In this document: in pieces, positions 36,625-45,310 of the stretch
How positions within the stretch are numbered: the first letter of the stretch is position 1
Layout of the letters: every line of letters starts with the position of its first letter
NCBI GenBank assembly: GCA_049324835.1
Contig: JBMOMT010000060.1
Span: 126,517 to 190,516, forward strand
Direction of reading: 5' to 3'
DNA: 64,000 bases
From: Chloroflexota bacterium
GTDB taxonomy: Bacteria; Chloroflexota; Anaerolineae; CAYNKW01
Program-made: the position numbers and the translations under genes
Notes under the pieces: model-generated
The model's input: the letters and a program-made list of their open reading frames with translations, nothing else
Told to the model about the DNA's origin: nothing
Databases searched by the model: none

Positions 36625-37042
36625 GTTGTCTCTCCTTTGACCGTTTGCCGCACTTGCAGAGATAAACGATCAGCACCAACAACAGGGCGTCGCCGGCCGG
36701 GATGAGCCACGGACGGACGACATGGATGTGGCTGATGTCTTGCACCGTCAGGCCGGGGTTCATCGCGGCGGCGATCACGTCCAACAGGCCGTGGACAAAG
36801 ATGAGGCCGACAATCCCGCCGGCGCGCCAGCGGATGAGGCCGAAAAGCAGGCCGAAAAGACCCGTCCCCAACGCGCCCAGCGGTCCCTGCCAACAGATAC
36901 GCGGCGATCTGAGCCGACATCTGCCAGACGGTGTCCGTCACGTTGGGCCACAGCCACAGGTAGGCCGGCAGAAACAAAAGGCCAACCTCGGCGAGGGCCT
37001 TCGATCCGGGCCGAGTGCGCTGCCACACGATCGCACCTCGCG

Positions 37043-37882
37043 TCACGGCTCGGGGCCAGCCGCCCTCTCGGCGCGGCGAGTGGCCCACAGGATGGCCACG
37101 CTGCCCAACGAGAGAACCGCCAGCGCTGCCTCGGCGGCTTTTCCGCCCCACGCGCCGTTGATATAAACGGCCACGGCGTTGAGCAGCGCGTGCCAGCCGA
37201 TGGCCGCCCACAGCGGCCACAACCGCCCCCGCAGGAAAACCTGCATCACCAGCGCCGCCGCCGAGAGGTGAAACAGCATGGCCATCAACCGTTCGGCGGC
37301 GGCCAGCAGCGGCATGTAGGCCGGCGTGGCCCAGAATGCTTTCACCTGACGGGCGGCCTCGGCGGCCTGCTCGGCGGGCAGGCCCAGCGCGGTCACGTCG
37401 ACGCCGCGCATGGCGGCCATGTTCAGCAACGTGACCCCCACCAGCAGCCCGGTGAGCATCGCTTCCACCCCGCCGTGACCCGCGCCAAACATGAGCGCCT
37501 GCCGCCAGGTGCGGGCCTCCTTGAGCCAGAAGCGATAGACCAGGTAGCGGGCCGTCTCCTCGCACAGGCCGGCGGTGAGGCCCAACACGACGGCGTTAAA
37601 GGGTAACTGCCACGCCTCCGGCGGCTTGGGCATCCAGTCGAGATTAAACAGCGCGGTCAGCCCAAAGTTGAGCGGCAGATGCACCACCTGCGAGCCGACA
37701 AAGGCCACCGCCCCGGCGAAAAAGAGCGTCCACGGCAGCCGCCACCGTCGCCAGAGGAACAATCCCAGCGCTACTGGCGCGCCGAGCATGATGGTGATTT
37801 CGATGAGAAAAACAACAGTGAGCAGAGATGACCTCCCTCGGCTGGTAGTTGGTAGATGGGCGAGTCGTTTCCCAGTTACCAA
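37043..37882 (-). CDS. YhfC/CPBP-type intramembrane metalloprotease
   Basis: EExxR (GLCEETARYL), GxGHGGxE (FGAGHGGVEAM), and HxxxN (WHALLNAVAVYI) within a polytopic membrane protein. The true start may be an internal or alternative codon. Confidence 0.5.
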   Translation of the reverse strand: MVTGKRLAHLPTTSRGRSSLLTVVFLIEITIMLGAPVALGLFLWRRWRLPWTLFFAGAVAFVGSQVVHLPLNFGLTALFNLDWMPKPPEAWQLPFNAVVLGLTAGLCEETARYLVYRFWLKEARTWRQALMFGAGHGGVEAMLTGLLVGVTLLNMAAMRGVDVTALGLPAEQAAEAARQVKAFWATPAYMPLLAAAERLMAMLFHLSAAALVMQVFLRGRLWPLWAAIGWHALLNAVAVYINGAWGGKAAEAALAVLSLGSVAILWATRRAERAAGPEP

Positions 37883-37898
37883 TCTCCCAATGTACCAG

Positions 37899-39227
37899 CT
37901 ATTCGTAGCGCAATGCCTCCACCGGGTCGAGCCGCGCGGCGCGGTTGGCCGGCAGCAACCCCGCCAGCAGGGCCACCCCCGTGCTGAGGACGATGACGGT
38001 GATCACCAGCCACGGCGGGAAACGCGAGATGTTGAACGTGGGATAGTCGCTCAGGAACGTGGCGCGAGCGGCCAGGTTGATGATCTGGCCGACGACCCAG
38101 GCGGCGGCGACGCCAACCAGGCCGCCGAAAAAGCCGATGCTGCCCGCCTCGACGGTGAACAGGAAGCGGATCGTGCCTCTGGACGCGCCGACGGCCTTCA
38201 TGACGCCGATCTCGCGTGTGCGCTCATAGATGGCCATGATGAGCGTGTTGACGATGCCCAGGCTGGCCACGGCCAGCGCGATCAGCCCCACCACACTCAG
38301 CACGCCTTCGATGACGGCAAACACGCCGCGCAGCTCGCCTGCCGCATCGTCGGCGGTGTCGGCCTCGAAATCGCCCAATTCTTCGATGGCGCGGGCTACG
38401 GCATCGGTATTTTTGGGATCGTCGACCGTCACCGCGGCGGCAAAGCCCATGTTCTGGTCGGTATAGTACTCGTCGTCCTCGTTAAAGTAGCGCGCCATCT
38501 CCACGCCATCCTCGTAGGGCACGACGACCTCGGTCGAGGCGATGCTGTCCTCCAGCACGCCGACGATCTCAAAGGTGTAATCCTGCCCCTCCGGCTCCTT
38601 GCTCGAAAAGGGGTTGACCTGGTAGCCCTGGCTCACCCGCACTTCGATCTCTCTGCCCAACGCCTCCTCCGGCCAGGACAGTCCCCACACGTCCAGGTAG
38701 GCATAGGCCACGACTGCCTTGCCCCGGTCGCCATCTTTCAGGCTCCGCCCGGCGGCGATGCCTCGCGTTTCCAATTCGTTGGGTGACAGCGACTCCAGCG
38801 AGACCTGGAAGCGTTTGTCTTGCCCCACCAGCCTGACCCAACGCGCCAGGACGACGATCACCGGGTCGACGCGCTCGACGTGCTCCAGCGCGGCGATGCG
38901 GGCCAGGTCTTGGCCGGTGAAGGTTTTGAACGCGCCGATGGGGTTCAACTGGCCCTCCTGCACTTCCTGTGGCTGCCCGCCAAAGCCGGTGGTGCTCAGG
39001 ATCAGGCCCAGCGTGCCGCCGGCCATCCTGGGTTGCACGGAAACGATATCCGGCGCTTGCAGTGAGCTGAACTGGGCGGTGATAAAGTTCTGCGCCCCCG
39101 CACCCAGGCTGACCAGCAGCGCCACGAGCGTCGCGCCGATGACCACCGCCATGACTGTCAACAGCGTGCGTAGTTTACGCCGCCACAGGTTGGTGATGGC
39201 CGTCCGCAGATAGTCTCTAAACAGCAT
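37899..39227 (-). CDS. ABC transporter permease, FtsX/MacB-type
   Basis: [46 protein letters not shown], a large periplasmic loop, and C-terminal FtsX 3-TM block. Start at internal ATG 39225-39227, overlapping the ATPase gene by 11 nt. Confidence 0.8.
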   Translation of the reverse strand: MLFRDYLRTAITNLWRRKLRTLLTVMAVVIGATLVALLVSLGAGAQNFITAQFSSLQAPDIVSVQPRMAGGTLGLILSTTGFGGQPQEVQEGQLNPIGAFKTFTGQDLARIAALEHVERVDPVIVVLARWVRLVGQDKRFQVSLESLSPNELETRGIAAGRSLKDGDRGKAVVAYAYLDVWGLSWPEEALGREIEVRVSQGYQVNPFSSKEPEGQDYTFEIVGVLEDSIASTEVVVPYEDGVEMARYFNEDDEYYTDQNMGFAAAVTVDDPKNTDAVARAIEELGDFEADTADDAAGELRGVFAVIEGVLSVVGLIALAVASLGIVNTLIMAIYERTREIGVMKAVGASRGTIRFLFTVEAGSIGFFGGLVGVAAAWVVGQIINLAARATFLSDYPTFNISRFPPWLVITVIVLSTGVALLAGLLPANRAARLDPVEALRYE

Positions 39228-39909
39228 GGGCCGCCTCCCCGTTGTCCTGCACGATCCGACCGTCGCGCAGGGCGATGTGCCGGCCGGCAAAGGCGGCCAC
39301 GTCAGGATCGTGCGTCACCACGATCACCGTCAGGCCGCGCTCGCGGTTGAGCCGGACCAACAGCTCGACGATGCCCATGCCGGTGGTGCTGTCCAGGTTG
39401 CCCGTCGGTTCGTCGGCCAGCAACAGCCTGGGCTGGTTGGCCAGCGCGCGGGCGATGCTCACCCGCTGCCGTTCACCGCCGGAAAGCTCTGTTGGCTTGT
39501 GACGCATCCGGTCGGCCAGACCGATGGCCTCCAGCGTCTCGCGTGCCCGGGCCAGCCGCTCTTTACGCGGCGCGCGGGCAAAGACCAGTGGCAGGGCCAC
39601 GTTCTCCAGCGCGGTGAGCGTCGATTGCAGGTTGAACGTCTGAAAGACAAAGCCCACCTGGGCGTTGCGATACCTGGATAGCTCGCGGTCGGTGGCCCGG
39701 CTCAGGTCCTGGCCGTTTACCACGATCGTGCCGGTGGTGGGGGTATCCAGCCCGCCGACGACGTGTAATAGCGTGCTCTTGCCGCTGCCCGAAGGCCCCA
39801 ACACGGCCACAAACTCTCCCTCGGCCACCGTCAGACTCACCCCATCCAGCGCGTGGATCGTCTCGTGGCCCATTTTGTAACTGCGTGTGACATCTCGCAA
39901 TTCGATCAT
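39217..39909 (-). CDS. ABC transporter ATP-binding protein (MacB/LolD-like)
   Basis: [28 protein letters not shown], Walker [25 protein letters not shown], Walker [13 protein letters not shown]. Start at ATG 39907-39909 rather than the GTG 39921 of the track. Confidence 0.85.
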
Positions 39910-39919
39910 ATCCAACCTC

Positions 39920-39968
39920 ACGCCTCACCTTTGACGTTTGACGTTTGACGTTTGACGCCCCACGCCTC
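39920..39968 (-). repeat. heptanucleotide tandem array 1 (ACGCCTC ACCTTTG ACGTTTG x3 ACGCCCC ACGCCTC; CGTCAAA units on the coding strand) immediately 5' of the MacB-like ATPase start
   Basis: Seven 7-bp units. The core is three perfect ACGTTTG, with four consecutive TTGACGT units read in the other phase, at 39931-39958. Flanked by direct repeats CACGCCTCAC at 39919-39928 and 39961-39970. Confidence 0.85.
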
Positions 39969-40764
39969 ACTTCCACCGCGTCAAAATCGTCTCCCGCTGA
40001 AAGAGCCGCACCGCCAGCCATAACACGCCCAGGTTGACCAACGCCACGACCGCCGTCGACCACAGCAGTATCTGCACGTTGAGAAAGATCTTGCCGGCCA
40101 GCACGGCGATGCTGACGCCGATGACCGGCACGATAAAAATCGCCGTGACCTGTTGGGCGGCGCGTGGATCGTTGAGCCGCGACGAGGCGATGACGCCGCA
40201 AGACGTGGACAGCAGCGCGAACAGCGGGCTGAGCAGAGCCATGCCCAGCGTCCACACCGGCCGCACCAACTGGGCGAACACCACCCGGCTGGCGATAAAG
40301 TACATGCCCACTGCCGTGAGCGCAAAGCTGAGCCAGGCCAGGATCACCGCCGGCGTCACGGCAGCGATCGTTTTGCCCACCAGCAATTCCGCCGTGCTGA
40401 CCGGCGTGGCCAGCAGCGGCTCCAGGCTGCGCGTCTCTTTTTCGCCGATGATGCTGTAGGCGGCGATATAGACGGGCAGGGCCATGGGGATGAGCAGCAG
40501 GTAAAACATGTACTGGTCGTTCATCAGCACGATAAAGCCGTCTTTGGCGCCCAACGCGGCCAGTTCGGGCGGCAGGCCAAAGGAACTGCTGCCCGTGTCG
40601 AGGTTGAGCTCCTCCTCCGGCGCACGCTGCATGAAATAGGTCGTGCCCAGGATCATGCCCACCATCAAGATGGGCAGCAGGGCCATCATGATGACCACCA
40701 TTTTGTTCTTGCGCATGTCGAGCCATTCTTTTTCGACGATGGCCCAAATTCGGTCTCCGTTCAT
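39967..40764 (-). CDS. ABC-2 type transporter permease
   Basis: MNGDRIWAIVEKEWLDMRKNKMVVIMMALLPILMV then 6 TM helices, typical of ABC-2 exporters. Confidence 0.75.
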   Translation of the reverse strand: MNGDRIWAIVEKEWLDMRKNKMVVIMMALLPILMVGMILGTTYFMQRAPEEELNLDTGSSSFGLPPELAALGAKDGFIVLMNDQYMFYLLLIPMALPVYIAAYSIIGEKETRSLEPLLATPVSTAELLVGKTIAAVTPAVILAWLSFALTAVGMYFIASRVVFAQLVRPVWTLGMALLSPLFALLSTSCGVIASSRLNDPRAAQQVTAIFIVPVIGVSIAVLAGKIFLNVQILLWSTAVVALVNLGVLWLAVRLFQRETILTRWK

Positions 40765-40944
40765 CGTTGTATCAGACTCCTATCCCAGACGAGCCGGAAT
40801 CGAAAAAAGCCAGAGCATTTCACCACCAGGACACAAAGACACCGAGCTCTTTACTTTTCTTCTTTGGGTCTTGGTGGTTAATCATCTCGCCAAGCGGGCA
40901 GCGATTTCACCGGCAAGGCACAGCTTTGTCGCAGAGACGACGCG

Positions 40945-41394
40945 CTATTTCCGGTTTTCCAGCCAGCGGCCGATGACGGCATAGTTAAAGTCGTGGCCGC
41001 CCAGGCAGCGCACTGCGCCCCACAGCCCGTAGAGCACCGTCAGGCCCATGATGCCCAGGGGCAGGATCATCAGGAACAGGCCGAACCACAACCCCGCCGG
41101 CGGCGTGGTCTGATATACATCGGGGTTGGCCATGAGCGGCGGCAGCAACAAGGCCATCCAGGCACAGCCCCAGCACGCCCACAAGACCCAGGTCAGCACC
41201 ATCGTTGCGATCTGGTAAACCAGCGCCTGGAGCGCCTGGCCGGCCGCGTAGGCCGATCTGTCCTTCTGCGTCACCCAGACCACCAGCGCCGCGGCGATGC
41301 CGCCGATGCCGTTGGTGAAAACCCCCAGCAGGATGCTGCCATGGGCCAACCCGGCAAGCACACGTTCCTCTTGGCTGGTCACCTTTGTCTCCAC
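40945..41394 (-). CDS. DUF4870-like small membrane protein
   Basis: QEERVLAGLAHGSILLGVFTNGIGGIAAALVVWVTQKD pattern (ER-x-A-x-L-x-H-x-S) with 3-4 TM. Embedded between the ABC ATPase and permease genes. Confidence 0.5.
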   Translation of the reverse strand: METKVTSQEERVLAGLAHGSILLGVFTNGIGGIAAALVVWVTQKDRSAYAAGQALQALVYQIATMVLTWVLWACWGCAWMALLLPPLMANPDVYQTTPPAGLWFGLFLMILPLGIMGLTVLYGLWGAVRCLGGHDFNYAVIGRWLENRK

Positions 41395-41406
41395 GTTGAG
41401 CCTCCT

Positions 41407-42321
41407 TTAGCTCTGCGATTCTTTCATCAGGTCAAAGTAGACCTGTTCCAGCGAGTGTTCTTCTTTTTCCACAAACTGCACCGCGCCGCCGGCCTCCACC
41501 AGCGCCCGCACCACTGCCGGGTTCTGCGATTCGGGATCATCCAACGCCACGCGGATCTGGCTGTCGAATTGCGAGACGCTTTTGACAAAGGGCAGCGCCT
41601 CCACGGCAGCGATGAGTGCGGGCGTGACCTCTGGCAGCCGGATGAGCACCGACTGCCCGTACAACCCGCGGCGCAGCGCCTCTGGCGTATCCACACGGAT
41701 GAGGTGTTGTTTGATGACACCCACGCGGTCGCACAGCCGGTCGGCCTCATCCAGGTTGTGGGTGCAGACAAAGATGGTGCGTCCCTGGCCACTGAGTTCC
41801 TCGACGAAATCGCGCACCACGCGGGCCGCCTCCGGATCGAGCGCGGAAGTCGGCTCGTCCAAAAACAGCACCGGCGGTTCGTGGAGCAACGCCCGGGCGA
41901 TGGCCAGCTTTTGGCGCATGCCTTTGGAAAAACCGCCCACCGGCTCGTGCCGCCGCTCCCACAGGCCGAGCATGGTCAGATACTTTTTCACCTGGCCGGG
42001 CGCGTCGTCCACACCGTAGAGCCTGGCGAATAGGCGCAGGTTTTCCTCCGCGTCCAGGCGTGGATACAGCCCCGGCGTCTCGGTGAGGATGCCAGCGCTG
42101 GCGCGGATGGCGTCGTCTTCGGCGCCGATCTGGTGGCCGTTGACCCAGGCTGTGCCGCTCGTGGGTGCGATGAGTGAGGCCAGCATCCGCACGGTCGTCG
42201 TTTTGCCGGCGCCGTTGGGGCCGAGGAAACCAAAAACTTCACCCTGACGCACCTCAAGCGTCAGGCTGTCTACGGCCAGGATGCCGTTGAAACGTTTGGT
42301 CAAACCTTGTGTTTGGATCAT
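41407..42321 (-). CDS. ABC transporter ATP-binding protein (ABC-2/DrrA-like)
   Basis: MIQTQGLTKRFNGILAVDSLTLEV, Walker A GPNGAGKTTT, signature FSKGMRQKLAIARAL, Walker B VLFLDEPTSALD. Confidence 0.85.
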   Translation of the reverse strand: MIQTQGLTKRFNGILAVDSLTLEVRQGEVFGFLGPNGAGKTTTVRMLASLIAPTSGTAWVNGHQIGAEDDAIRASAGILTETPGLYPRLDAEENLRLFARLYGVDDAPGQVKKYLTMLGLWERRHEPVGGFSKGMRQKLAIARALLHEPPVLFLDEPTSALDPEAARVVRDFVEELSGQGRTIFVCTHNLDEADRLCDRVGVIKQHLIRVDTPEALRRGLYGQSVLIRLPEVTPALIAAVEALPFVKSVSQFDSQIRVALDDPESQNPAVVRALVEAGGAVQFVEKEEHSLEQVYFDLMKESQS

Positions 42322-42330
42322 CCCTGTCTC

Positions 42331-42537
42331 CTAAAACCAGCGGTCGCCAGGCTCGCGGCGACGCGCCCCGCCCACGGGCCGCTTGAGCACGGCCACGAAT
42401 TCACCCTGAAGGCGCGTCGCGGCGATCACCTCCCACCCCTCTTCGCCCCACAGATTGAGCTCTTCTTCGATCTCTTCGGCGCGAAAGCCTTTGATCCCGA
42501 TGCCTGTTTTCAGCACTTTGTATTCCCACCTGGTCAT
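42331..42537 (-). CDS. DUF4177-like small protein
   Basis: MTRWEYKVLKTGIGIKGFRAEEIEEELNLWGEEGWEVIAATRL matches the M-x-WEYK start typical of DUF4177. RBS GGTGGAGGGAGC before the ATG. Confidence 0.55.
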   Translation of the reverse strand: MTRWEYKVLKTGIGIKGFRAEEIEEELNLWGEEGWEVIAATRLQGEFVAVLKRPVGGARRREPGDRWF

Positions 42538-42544
42538 GCTCCCT

Positions 42545-42607
42545 CCACCTCACGTTTGACGTTTGACGTTTGACGTTTGACGTTTCACGCTTCACGTTTC
42601 ACGCTGT
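42545..42607 (-). repeat. heptanucleotide tandem array 2 (ACGTTTG x4 then ACGTTTC ACGCTTC ACGTTTC ACGCTGT) immediately 5' of the DUF4177 start; distal units encode the stomatin C-terminus
   Basis: Four perfect ACGTTTG units at 42552-42579 plus four degenerate units to 42607. The last units overlap the stomatin stop (..SVKREA*). Same downstream context (CGTGAGG..GGAG..ATG) as array 1. Confidence 0.85.
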
Positions 42608-43577
42608 CAGACCCCATCGGAGCCATGCCTGCCAGAGATGTTACCCCGGCCAGCCCGCCCAGGTTCATCGTATCCACCGCGCTGCTGGGCACGATGACCA
42701 GCGCGCCGCGCTCTTTTAAGCCCTCGAAGAGCATGTTCATCGCCCGCAGGTGCAGCGCCACCGGGCTGTCTGCGTACGCCTCGGCCGCCTCGCGGAAGCT
42801 GTGGGCGATCTGCTTCTCGCTCTCGCCCAGGATGACCCGCGCCTGACGCTCACGCTCGGCTTGAGCCTGACGGCTCATGGCATCTTCCAGCGCCTCCGGG
42901 ATGACGACATCGCGGATCTCGACCGATTGCACCGTCACGCCCCAGGGGGTGGTGCGCTCGTCGATGATCTTTTGCAGCTCGGCGTCCATGGCGGCGCGAC
43001 CCACCAGGATGGCTGCCAGGTCCATCTGGCCGATGATCTCACGCAACGCCGTCTGCGCCGCCCAGGCGATGGCCACGCGATAGTCTTCCACTTCCAGGGC
43101 CGCCTTTTCGGCGTCCCACACCACCCAAAATAGCACGGCGTCCACATCAACGGGCACGGTGTCTTTGGTGAGCGTCTTTTCGGCGTTAAAGGGCGTGACC
43201 ATCACGCGGTGATCGATCCAGGCTGGAATGCTGTCCACGACGGGGATGACCCAGAACAGCCCCGGCCCTTTCAGGCCGCGAAACCTGCCAAAGCGCAGGA
43301 CGATGGCCTTTTCCCACTGGTTGGCTACCTTGATGGCGAACAGGAAAGCGAGACCCACCAGCGCGCCGGTCAGGACGATTGCTGCCAGGAACCAGTCGGC
43401 TGCGTCGATCAGGACGTCCAAAACAAGGGCCGTGACGATGCAGAGTGTCAGCACGATCACAAACACCGTCGTCGAGACGCCATTGACCATTTTCGAAAAA
43501 TTGTAAGCTTGTTGGGCAGATATACCTGACCTGTCTGTGCGTCGGGCCTGGACGCGAAGATACTTTGAGCTTTGCAT
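42585..43577 (-). CDS. stomatin/slipin-type SPFH (band 7) protein
   Basis: N-terminal TM, then IVLRFGRFRGLKGPGLFWVIPVVDS (the stomatin-type PHB start), then a coiled coil. Confidence 0.8.
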   Translation of the reverse strand: MQSSKYLRVQARRTDRSGISAQQAYNFSKMVNGVSTTVFVIVLTLCIVTALVLDVLIDAADWFLAAIVLTGALVGLAFLFAIKVANQWEKAIVLRFGRFRGLKGPGLFWVIPVVDSIPAWIDHRVMVTPFNAEKTLTKDTVPVDVDAVLFWVVWDAEKAALEVEDYRVAIAWAAQTALREIIGQMDLAAILVGRAAMDAELQKIIDERTTPWGVTVQSVEIRDVVIPEALEDAMSRQAQAERERQARVILGESEKQIAHSFREAAEAYADSPVALHLRAMNMLFEGLKERGALVIVPSSAVDTMNLGGLAGVTSLAGMAPMGSDSVKREA

Positions 43578-43586
43578 GTTGTCCTC

Positions 43587-43982
43587 CTAATGTGCTTTCA
43601 CGCGGCTGAATACTTTTTCCAGTTTGTTCTGGAAGGTCTGTTCCACTTCTCGACGGCTGTACCCCAGGTTGGCCAGTTCATCCAACGCCGTGACGATGAT
43701 GAGCCTCATTTTTTCCTCTCGCATGTGGGTCAGTGACTCCTCTTCGGGGCTATCGGCCACAAACGTGCCCCGCCCCCGTTGGGTAGAGATGAGCCCTTCC
43801 CGTTCGAGTTCAAAATAAGCCCGCACGACGGTGTTAAAGTTGATGCGCAGGTCGGTGGCCAGTTGCCGGATGGTGGGCAGTTGATCGCCTGGCTTGAGTT
43901 GTCCCGCTGCGATCTGGGCCTTGATCTGCTCCGTGATCTGGGCGTATATCGGCAACCGGCTTTCGGTGTCGATCTGGACCAC
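43587..43982 (-). CDS. GntR family transcriptional regulator, short YtrA-like subtype
   Basis: winged HTH LPIYAQITEQIKAQIAAGQLKPGDQLPTIRQLATDLRINFNTVVRAYFELEREGLI. Only about 130 aa (short C-terminal domain). GTG start at 43980-43982 with AGGAGG RBS. Confidence 0.8.
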   Translation of the reverse strand: MVQIDTESRLPIYAQITEQIKAQIAAGQLKPGDQLPTIRQLATDLRINFNTVVRAYFELEREGLISTQRGRGTFVADSPEEESLTHMREEKMRLIIVTALDELANLGYSRREVEQTFQNKLEKVFSRVKAH

Positions 43983-44013
43983 GCCTTGCCTCCTATTGTA
44001 ATACTAATACATT

Positions 44014-44053
44014 ATTGTACTAGTATTATAGTACAATTTTGGGAAAATGTCAA
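44014..44053 (-). promoter_or_regulatory. consensus sigma-70 promoter (TTGACA-17-TATAAT) overlapped by a 9-6-9 palindrome ATTGTACTA-N6-TAGTACAAT: promoter and likely operator of the GntR-headed unit
   Basis: On the minus strand TTGACA (plus 44048-44053), 17-nt spacer, TATAAT (plus 44025-44030). Palindrome at 44014-44037 covers the -10 and transcription start. The region is sharply AT-rich in a GC-rich genome. Confidence 0.65.
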
Positions 44054-44118
44054 GGCCCAAAAAAGTCATCGAGTCTTTGCCGTTGCAGATTGGCTGCTCT
44101 ATGCTATAATGGACAAAC

Positions 44119-44267
44119 GTAACTGCTCAGCCTACCCTCCCGCAGGCTAAAATCGTTTACCCTGTCCCACAATCTAGTCGACTGGACGCTGGCGAATCGG
44201 CAAATTGCGGCAGTGGGCACGGCATTGCCGTGCCCCTACAAGAGCCTGCGGGAGGGTGAGCAGTTAC
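44119..44267. repeat. MITE-like repeat element, copy C (most complete), flanked by 8-bp target-site duplication GGACAAAC
   Basis: Termini GTAACTGCTCAGCCTACCCTCCCGCAGGC ... GCCTGCGGGAGGGTGAGCAGTTAC (terminal inverted repeats). Direct repeat GGACAAAC at 44111-44118 and 44268-44275. Internal hairpin GGGCACGGCATTGCCGTGCCC. Confidence 0.8.
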
Positions 44268-44353
44268 GGACAAACATGGAACCAGGTGTTGGTTTTGACC
44301 GTCTATGAAACAGGTATCACACTTTTGCTGCCATGACATTCAAGGAGGAGAAC

Positions 44354-45310
44354 ATGAAACAGCTACGTCCCCCCAGCCCTTTGCCTGTTCTGTTGATCCT
44401 GTTGGCGGCAGCCCTGATCGTCGCCGGCTGCGCCAAATCGCCCTCAGAGAGGACCGAACAGGTTGTGCGGGAGATGGTCAGAGAGACGGTGGTCGTCGCC
44501 GGCACGCCGCAAGTGGCGGAAAAGGAAGGCGTGCCCGCGCCGACCATGCCACCCCAGGCAGGAGACGGCGTGGCTCCGCTGCCGGTGGCCTACCGCGTCA
44601 ACCGTATGATCATCAAAAACGCCGAACTGCGCCTGCAAGTGACCGACACCGACCGCGCCATCGATCAGGCGACCCAGATCGCCGCCGACACTTTTGGTTA
44701 CATCCTCTCTGCTCGCACCTGGTACCAGGCCGATTATAAATACGCTACTGTCACCATCGGTGTGCCGGTGGACGAGTTCGAGAACGCCGTGCGCCGCTTG
44801 CGGGCGCTGGCCCTCAAGGTGCTGGACGAAAACGCCTCCGGCAGCGACGTCACCGACCAGTACGTCGATCTGGAGTCGCAACTGCGCAACCTGGAGGCCA
44901 CTGAAGCCCGTATCCGCTCTTTCCTCGACAAGGCCACCACCGTCGAAGAGGCGTTGCTGGTCAACCAAAAGCTGGCCGACATTACCGCTCAGATCGAACA
45001 GATCAAGGGTCAGATGAATTATCTCCAGGATCGGGCGGCCTACTCGACCATCACCGTTCACCTGGAACCGGATGTTCCCACACCCACCCCCACACCCACA
45101 CCCACCCCCACACCCACGCCCACGCCAGAGGCCTGGCGTCCGGCGGAGACCTTGGGCAGCGCCACGGGTGTACTGGGTGCCATCCTGCGGATTCTGGGCG
45201 ATCTGATCATCTGGGTCACGGTGGTGTTGGGGCCGTTCATTCTGCTGCTGGCCTTCATCATCTGGATTGGCGTCCGTCTGCGGCGGCGCTGGCGCAAACC
45301 AGCCGCGTAG
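44354..45310 (+). CDS. DUF4349-like lipoprotein with coiled-coil region, (PT)10 linker and C-terminal TM anchor
   Basis: RBS AAGGAGGAG then ATG 44354. Lipobox LIVAGCAKS. Coiled-coil block ([21 protein letters not shown]...[28 protein letters not shown]). C-terminal TM. Confidence 0.5.
   Translation: [318 protein letters not shown]

Follow-up and report, generated by a model that had tools for sequence, protein, structure and literature searches.

Introduction

According to two papers that cite the original survey (Mrazek et al. 2007, via PMC4679880 and PMC4692102), heptameric simple sequence repeats (SSRs) are over-represented among the long SSRs of bacterial genomes in many cases, an excess for which slippage of the polymerase is the proposed cause. 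They form an accepted but little understood class; three heptanucleotide repeats are also known from Calothrix, as cited in PMC4692102. The GGGAATC and GGGGA(T/C)T repeats of Xanthomonas and Nostoc keep the same gene neighbours across related species and are very variable in length (Rehm et al. 2015, PMC4692102), and the Nostoc GGGGATT repeat is intra-operonic, lying between pecE and pecF (PMC4692102). The TAACTGA repeats of marine Beggiatoaceae are found just 5' of start codons and are proposed, untested translational control sites (MacGregor 2015, PMC4679880). Deletion of the heptamer repeats upstream of Nostoc recO shifts the response of a reporter about 2-fold in E. coli (bioRxiv 10.1101/2022.06.06.494920). 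This analysis concerns two arrays of tandem heptanucleotides, with the core unit GTCAAAC on the coding strand, in a 64,000-nucleotide stretch of the genome of a Chloroflexota bacterium (GCA_049324835.1, contig JBMOMT010000060.1, positions 126,517 to 190,516 of the forward strand), referred to below as the window.

The arrays are most probably (with a probability of about 0.75) heptanucleotide microsatellites, of the type called short tandemly repeated repetitive (STRR) sequences or long SSRs, that were born in place at two junctions of a conserved GntR-SPFH-DUF4177-ABC operon. They exist in the genome as read, vary by 7-nt units in close relatives and are absent from distant orthologous operons, and the same unit occurs at many unrelated Chloroflexota loci.

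Results

The extents of the arrays were taken from a direct read-out of the sequence together with a heptad scan. On the minus strand, which is the coding strand, each array consists of eight heptads (56 nt) of the form GTSRRRN.

39915..39970, minus strand: array 1, eight heptads, GTGAGGC GTGGGGC GTCAAAC GTCAAAC GTCAAAC GTCAAAG GTGAGGC GTGAGGT
39936..39956, minus strand: perfect core of array 1, (GTCAAAC)x3
42547..42602, minus strand: array 2, eight heptads, GTGAAAC GTGAAGC GTGAAAC GTCAAAC x4 GTGAGGT
42554..42581, minus strand: perfect core of array 2, (GTCAAAC)x4

Tandem Repeats Finder (TRF) reported period 7 at both sites, with 4.0 copies and 100% matches at 39930-39957 and 7.4 copies and 93% matches at 42552-42603, and it found no further period-7 array in the whole 64-kb window. 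A search with the two-unit pattern ACGTTTGACGTTTG at up to two mismatches gave seven matches against 0.29 expected, a number reached in 0 of 100 shuffles, and runs of three or more GTSRRRN units in succession were found only at the two arrays (shuffle mean 0.01). Both arrays thus hold at least three head-to-tail copies of a 7-nt unit beyond chance. The preliminary description of this DNA, made from its letters alone, had reported two 7-bp tandem arrays with three to four perfect units each; reading, TRF and pattern search all confirm this, with the extents now refined to 39915-39970 and 42547-42602. The direct repeats CACGCCTCAC that it noted on either side of array 1 are also present and amount simply to the GTGAGGC-GTG units at either end, and the degenerate first units of array 2 do, as it said, encode the C-terminus of the stomatin/SPFH protein (VKREA*). 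CRISPR repeats (about 23-50 nt with unique spacers) were not found at these sites, the units being 7 nt long, contiguous and spacer-free.

Two independent Logan contigs from SRR32167788 carry the arrays in a form identical to that of the window, L118 at site 2 and L199 at site 1 (loci retrieved in this work are numbered with the prefix L), and the arrays are therefore not assembly artefacts. Exact look-ups of the SPFH and ABC-2 permease proteins returned solely Logan contigs of the same sample, again identical to the window, and exact-protein look-ups with DUF4177 and P0001 gave no match.

Both arrays are fitted to the stop codon of one gene and the Shine-Dalgarno (SD) sequence of the next.

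39967..39969, minus strand: TGA stop of the ABC-2 permease, inside heptad 1 of array 1 (G-TGA-GGC)
39907..39921, minus strand: last heptad of array 1, GTGAGGT (SD GAGGT), then TGGAT and the ATG of the MacB-type ATPase
42585..42587, minus strand: TGA stop of SPFH/Band-7, inside heptad 3 of array 2 (G-TGA-AAC)
42535..42553, minus strand: last heptad of array 2, GTGAGGT, then GGAGGGAGC (SD) and the ATG of DUF4177

At each site the upstream TGA stop falls within a GTGAxxC heptad, and the terminal GTGAGGT forms the SD sequence or a part of it. Array 1 takes up nearly all of the 57 nt that separate the ABC-2 permease gene from that of the MacB-type ATPase (ATG at 39909). Array 2 covers the last six SPFH codons and most of the 47-nt spacer before DUF4177 (ATG at 42537). 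Both are intercistronic, a location to be expected of heptanucleotide SSRs since 7 is not a multiple of 3, the only coding overlap being that of array 2 with those six codons.

A homologue search with the MacB-type ATPase yielded one close relative, a JGI contig (L200) with 95-97% nucleotide identity to the window along some 8 kb of this operon. At site 1 it reads TGAGGC GTGAAAC GTCAAAC GTCAAAG GTGAGGC ATGAGGT, which is six heptads in a 43-nt spacer; the window has eight in 57 nt. Its site 2 reads GTGAAGC GTGAAAC GTGAGGC, three heptads, none of them GTCAAAC, with the stop followed by a 14-nt spacer, where the window has eight and 47 nt. Relative to this contig the window therefore has two more units (+14 nt) at site 1 and about five more (about +35 nt) at site 2, and in the alignments the array gaps of 14 nt and 33 nt make up most of the 75 gap positions of the approximately 8-kb BLAST alignment. 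The number of whole units is thus polymorphic, as established with this one close relative, and the earlier suggestion that the locus is prone to slippage is borne out by the comparison.

More distant operons, compared by protein identity, have no arrays at either site, with one partial counterpart.

L201, 83% identity: site-1 spacer 22 nt, site-2 spacer 15 nt, no arrays
L202, 80% identity: site-1 spacer 56 nt of unrelated sequence, site-2 spacer 15 nt, no arrays
L205 and L206, 77% identity: site-1 spacer 8 nt, site-2 spacer 15 nt, no arrays

The counterpart is L204 (80% amino acid identity), which has a distinct short array at site 1, GTAAAAC GTGAAAC GTGAAGC GTGAGGT. At site 1 the more distant relatives retain one heptad, (A/G)TGAGGT, with the SD of the downstream gene. 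The hexamer TGAGGT is unchanged across all five sequences of the site-1 alignment, and in L205 the single heptad ATGAGGT is both the permease stop and the SD of the ATPase. No perfect heptad array was found in any of 80 metagenome loci with SPFH orthologues of 65-85% identity, a set that included no close relative. The arrays are young and variable and are not conserved elements.

The unit itself is widespread. An exact search for (ACGTTTG)3, in which GTCAAAC is read on the other strand and in another register, was made against one genome per GTDB species and gave more than 117 loci. About 46 of the first 80 titled records among the matches listed are metagenome-assembled genomes (MAGs) of Chloroflexota, Anaerolineae, Anaerolineales, Thermoflexia/Thermoflexales and Caldilineae/Caldilineaceae, and several Chloroflexota genomes give three or four loci each among these matches; most of the others listed belong to Bacteroidota and Ignavibacteria, and a few to further phyla. 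The arrays are accordingly not confined to the two sites of the window, as had been left to be checked, and (GTCAAAC)n arrays occur in many Chloroflexota genomes. With two loci in the window and more than 117 in GTDB, the unit shows the multi-locus recurrence of heptanucleotide SSRs.

The GTDB loci (0.83 Mb) contain 184 perfect heptad arrays of at least three copies, 126 of the GTCAAAC type and 58 with other units. The units that flank the arrays are degenerate copies, among which GTGAAAC is the most frequent. The order GTGAAGC GTGAAAC (GTCAAAC)n was found again in L042, and near variants, with GTGAAAC or ATGAAAC GTGAAGC ahead of a GTCAAAC core, in L044, L052 and L056. In seven loci (L037, L060, L068, L070, L071, L090 and L103) the arrays are compound, a GTCAAAC array adjoining other tandem heptads (CAAACAC, GAGAAAC, CCAACTT-like or CGCACTA-like). 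Given these compound arrays and the 58 arrays with other units, these genomes are generally rich in heptad repeats.

Genes in the GTDB loci were called with an open reading frame (ORF) scorer based on log-odds of amino acid composition, which reproduces the Pfam-supported genes of the window. The arrays were then classified by the genes around them.

Between co-directional genes, sense arrays: 31
Between co-directional genes, antisense arrays: 14
Between convergent genes: 14
Between divergent genes: 15
Within predicted ORFs: 15

Among the classifiable arrays of other genomes, 74 of 89 are intergenic. The sense arrays lie a median of 19 nt from the upstream stop and a median of 130 nt from the next start, and only about 5 of the 31 are within 21 nt of it. 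Adjacency to start codons, which the preliminary description had stressed, is therefore not a general feature of the family; it is seen in the window because the spacers of this operon are very short. An excess of 15 to 0 in favour of the sense strand within predicted ORFs was considered as evidence of strand preference and discarded as trivial, since every frame of the ACGTTTG strand runs into a TGA and the GTCAAAC strand is free of stops.

Two further arrangements were seen in these genomes. In 14 loci (L001, L008, L012, L034, L048, L053, L063, L076, L077, L081, L086, L096, L107 and L117) a (CAAACGT)n array has an inverted (ACGTTTG)n array some 10-40 nt after it. Such pairs would make long interrupted intergenic hairpins. 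Judged by eye, the CAAACGT-first order outnumbers the reverse by about 14 to 2; neither window array has an inverted partner. In three Anaerolineae loci (L013:790-818, L014:1230-1258, and L061 at 788 on the minus strand) a GTCAAAC array stands directly upstream of a flavoprotein GxGxxG N-terminus, apparently in frame and with no obvious intervening start codon, and it may be translated as residues of the QTSNVKR type.

The operon that carries the window arrays was annotated with Pfam. The gene context agrees with the earlier placement of both arrays in the same GntR-headed operon of the minus strand, one ahead of the MacB-type ATPase and one ahead of DUF4177.

43587-43982, minus strand: GntR gene
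42585-43577, minus strand: SPFH/Band-7 (stomatin) gene
42331-42537, minus strand: DUF4177 gene
41407-42321, minus strand: ABC ATPase gene
40945-41394, minus strand: DUF4870 gene
39967-40764, minus strand: ABC-2 permease gene
39217-39909, minus strand: MacB-type ATPase gene
37899-39230, minus strand: FtsX/MacB permease gene
37043-37882, minus strand: YhfC gene

In L200 an extra gene for a 203-residue protein (bPH_2 / DUF7642, L200:2205-2816) stands between the ABC ATPase and DUF4870 genes, where the window has a 12-nt spacer (41394-41407). As this gene is also present in L205 and L206, it was probably lost in the window lineage. A hexamer/18-mer tandem repeat, (CCCACA) x7.8, lies at 45077-45123 of the window within the plus-strand ORF 44333-45310, and encodes a (Pro-Thr)n linker of a predicted membrane-anchored protein.

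Promoter and operator signals were found at the head of the operon.

44025..44053, minus strand: operon promoter TTGACA-17-TATAAT, a 12/12 sigma-70 match, upstream of the GntR gene (consensus scan)
44014..44037, no strand assigned: perfect 9+9 nt inverted repeat ATTGTACTA-N6-TAGTACAAT, 100% complementary, overlapping the -10 box

A half-site related to this palindrome, ATTGTAATA, was seen at 43995-44003. The architecture of promoter and palindrome is kept in the orthologous operons L201, L202, L205 and L120 (70-83% protein identity), and the palindrome at 44014-44037 is probably the (auto)regulatory operator of the short YtrA-like GntR regulator. The consensus scan of 37000-45000 found no promoter at either array, the GntR upstream site being the only promoter-like one, and the internal promoter that had been considered for the arrays is not supported. 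TTGACG hexamers resembling a -35 box do occur at the arrays and were rejected as candidates: they sit on the antisense strand and lack a -10 box to go with them.

At the RNA level, no Rfam covariance model matched anywhere in the window, and the folding energies of the spacer RNAs are no different from those of shuffled sequences (z from -1.7 to +0.2). On these scores both a stable structure and a marked absence of structure were rejected for the arrays. The only regular feature is a stack of 4-bp ACGU:ACGU helices, formed because ACGU is self-complementary. Of the earlier view that the array RNA is A/C-rich and unstructured, the composition and the weakness of the structure stand, and the idea that it is specially unstructured does not.

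Discussion

The comparison with relatives suggests how the arrays may have formed, with replication slippage as the probable mechanism. The starting points would have been those still seen in the more distant relatives, a tight junction with one stop/SD heptad, (A/G)TGAGGY, at site 1 and a plain 15-nt spacer at site 2. Slippage would have duplicated the stop/SD heptad at site 1. The outer copies would have stayed constrained, the 5' end as a stop and the 3' end as an SD, and the inner copies, freed from these roles, could drift from GTGAGGC by way of GTGAAGC or GTGAAAC to GTCAAAC, with the homogeneous GTCAAAC core expanding last. Selection on the outer copies would explain why both arrays open with a TGA-bearing GTGAxxC and close with GTGAGGT and a start codon. 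The "identical contexts" to which attention had been drawn would thus follow from in-place growth out of a stop/SD junction, and neither a shared regulator nor a segmental duplication is needed to account for them.

That the two sites instead arose by one local duplication, or by two insertions of a small mobile element, is extremely unlikely. They do share the unit, the length of eight heptads and similar end units at a distance of 2.6 kb, but the flanks outside the heptads have no similarity, there are neither terminal inverted repeats nor target-site duplications, and L200 has register-preserving intermediates at both sites, its site 2 being without GTCAAAC. The local duplication that had been named as a refuting alternative is therefore not what is seen, as nothing beyond the heptads is common to the two sites. 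Core units may still have been exchanged between them by gene conversion.

Several points weigh against the microsatellite reading. The sense bias between co-directional genes is modest but present (29 to 14 without the window arrays, binomial p = 0.03), and of 24 sense arrays 19 have the stop of the preceding gene, not the start of the following one, as the nearer end (p = 0.007); together these biases suggest a strand-specific constraint. The dominance of GTCAAAC at both sites and in unrelated genomes is not explained by drift plus slippage alone and hints at a sequence-specific mutational or selective bias. The ORF scorer behind the gene calls in the other loci is, moreover, crude. Finally, as there is a single close relative, the polarity of the change, expansion in the window or contraction in L200, leans on distant outgroups.

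A dedicated conserved function of the arrays is unlikely, since the operon exists without them in relatives and near-identical genomes differ in the number of units. Physically they stretch the site-1 spacer from 8-22 to 57 nt and the site-2 spacer from 15 to 47 nt, with the SD and the start codon left intact. The expected consequence would be a weaker coupling of termination and reinitiation and an A/C-rich, weakly structured leader before an intact SD. At most, then, the arrays would act as mutable quantitative modifiers of DUF4177 and the first ABC module, and of the MacB-type module, relative to the genes upstream. The translational standby site or enhancer suggested earlier would be a possible role; orthologous operons work with no arrays, and in the wider family the arrays have no preference for positions beside start codons.

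Against this background the functional explanations can be weighed. That (GUCAAAC)n is an RNA-level cis element, bound by the ribosome or by an RNA-binding protein (such as S1 or a protein of the cold-shock type) and enhancing or regulating translation of the next cistron, would fit the way both window arrays abut an SD and a start codon, the preference for the sense strand between co-directional genes (31 to 14) and the A/C-rich tract with its weak predicted structure, and it has hypothesised precedents (PMC4679880; bioRxiv 10.1101/2022.06.06.494920). It is nevertheless unlikely: array-free orthologous operons keep tight junctions (site 1, 8-22 nt; site 2, 15 nt), close relatives differ in unit number, the family arrays are not start-proximal (median 130 nt, about 5 of 31 within 21 nt), a canonical SD is kept 3' of each array, unlike the situation with TAACTGA in Beggiatoaceae, and the modest strand bias may stem from an asymmetry of replication or transcription. 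A phase-variable contingency locus, in which slippage would turn expression of the ABC modules downstream on or off, is very unlikely. SSRs in 5' untranslated regions can mediate phase variation (PMC12721329; PMC4679880) and the unit number does vary between close relatives, but the window arrays lie outside the downstream ORFs and outside any -35/-10 spacer. As they are upstream of the SD, a change in unit number affects neither the reading frame nor the distance from SD to ATG. The GTGAxxC units, moreover, have TGA in all three frames, so that changes at the 3' end of the SPFH gene touch few tail residues; the host is an environmental Chloroflexota MAG and the genes are transporters of a housekeeping type; and the two contigs from the one sample equal the window exactly. 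With the arrays upstream of an intact SD and outside ORF and promoter spacer, the on/off switch proposed earlier is not supported.

The heptads might, on sequence grounds, form a DNA-level array of binding sites for the GntR regulator of the operon or for ParB, a reading that is highly improbable. Some ParB proteins bind the half-parS heptamers GTTCCAC and GTTTCAC (PMC7022226), and array 2 contains two GTGAAAC units, whose other strand is GTTTCAC, so that its flanking units equal a parS half-site that is bound as a heptamer by some ParBs (PMC7022226). A full parS palindrome, GTTTCACGTGAAAC, furthermore stands just after the SPFH stop, in the equivalent spacer, in 12 of the 80 orthologous metagenome loci. 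However, the core unit GTCAAAC (GTTTGAC on the other strand) alters the C at position 6 of the half-site TGTTNCAC; the 16-bp palindrome TGTTNCACGTGAAACA has no match in the window at up to one mismatch, and one two-mismatch match elsewhere is at chance level. Palindromes and heptad arrays never occur together in 1.3 Mb of loci, the counts being 56 and 0 in the SPFH set and 0 and 184 in the GTDB set. For the GntR regulator the promoter palindrome is the better operator candidate, and the arrays are missing where the same regulator is present; an operator of a YtrA-like GntR regulator would be a palindrome of the GT...AC type, placed at the promoter and conserved with the regulator, whereas the arrays are direct repeats absent from the orthologous operons. 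A direct spacing of 7 bp would also be ill-suited to a dimeric helix-turn-helix protein. The GntR-binding array of the preliminary description is thus disfavoured by orthologous operons that keep the -10-overlapping palindrome and have no heptad arrays. A broader form of the binding idea is a lineage-wide family of cis elements in filamentous Chloroflexota, (GTCAAAC)n/GTGAAAC arrays read by a dedicated factor such as ParB on heptads resembling half-parS or an RNA-binding protein on the sense transcript. This is distinctly improbable and is kept in view because the unit recurs across genomes, the sense strand is favoured and parS palindromes occupy the equivalent spacer of related lineages. If it were true, the rapid gain, loss and resizing of arrays at operon junctions would rewire expression or chromosome organisation.

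The parS palindromes of the SPFH-orthologue loci (L119-L198) are an observation in their own right. GTTTCACGTGAAAC occurs there 56 times in perfect form (64 at up to one mismatch) in 0.5 Mb, in 40 of the 80 loci, and was not found in the window, in L001-L117 or in L200-L214. All but one of the palindromes are intergenic; they are often paired at 37-124 nt and often stand right after a stop or before an SD (for example L143:6901-6957, L158:2421-2482 and L170:2346-2359). Chromosomes usually have 1-25 parS sites, and the density in these loci is far higher. Either an origin-proximal parS cluster surrounds the operon in some Anaerolineae, or parS-like palindromes are used there as a dispersed intergenic repeat.

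Taking the arrays as microsatellites, the appropriate annotation label is hypervariable heptanucleotide SSR, not operator, promoter or RNA motif. The locus gives an unusually clear view of the birth of an array, since graded relatives lead from one stop/SD heptad to a 56-nt array in which the outer units are kept. If the number of units modulates translational coupling, it would offer a cheap and reversible way of retuning subunit ratios within operons. The recurrence of GTCAAAC also bears on why 7-nt units, and particular sequences among them, are favoured. Through the wide occurrence of this unit the Anaerolineae, a further filamentous lineage, join a scattered set of heptamer-rich bacteria (Nostocales, Beggiatoaceae and some Bacteroidota).

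Comparison with known systems

A search of a literature library found no description of heptamer repeats in Chloroflexi. Of the systems described elsewhere, the cyanobacterial STRR sequences of Calothrix and Nostoc and the long SSRs of Mrazek have most features in common with the window arrays: tandem 7-nt units in intergenic positions, including spacers within operons, one unit recurring in several dispersed arrays of a genome, degenerate ends, variation in close relatives and no established function. The differences are the unit, GTCAAAC/ACGTTTG, the host, which belongs to Chloroflexota (class Anaerolineae and relatives), and the fact that the birth of the array from a stop/SD heptad can be traced in relatives of the window.

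The TAACTGA repeats of Beggiatoaceae are likewise intergenic heptamer direct repeats (2-6 copies), the window arrays, too, standing directly 5' of starts in the forward orientation, and both kinds have a patchy distribution over phyla that includes Bacteroidetes. The BOGUAY repeats, however, overlap or replace the ribosome-binding site and lie mostly a few nucleotides from the start, whereas the window arrays precede a canonical SD and the GTCAAAC family, with its different unit, is usually far from the next start. A start-proximal network of the TAACTGA type was therefore not recognised here, given the canonical SD after both window arrays, the median of 130 nt in the family and the 31 forward arrays against 14. 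The GGGAATC and GGGGA(T/C)T units of Xanthomonas and Nostoc are G-rich and form G-quadruplexes, of which GTCAAAC is incapable, its sole structural feature being the self-complementary ACGT. With parS and half-parS sites (PMC7022226) there is a resemblance only: the flanking GTGAAAC is the half-site GTTTCAC and a full parS stands in the equivalent spacer of some orthologous loci, but the window has no palindrome and the core differs at the C in position 6 of the half-site.

In every defining feature that was tested, the window arrays agree with the heptanucleotide SSR class. That class is already known; added here are an example from a Chloroflexota lineage and the evolutionary series that accompanies it.

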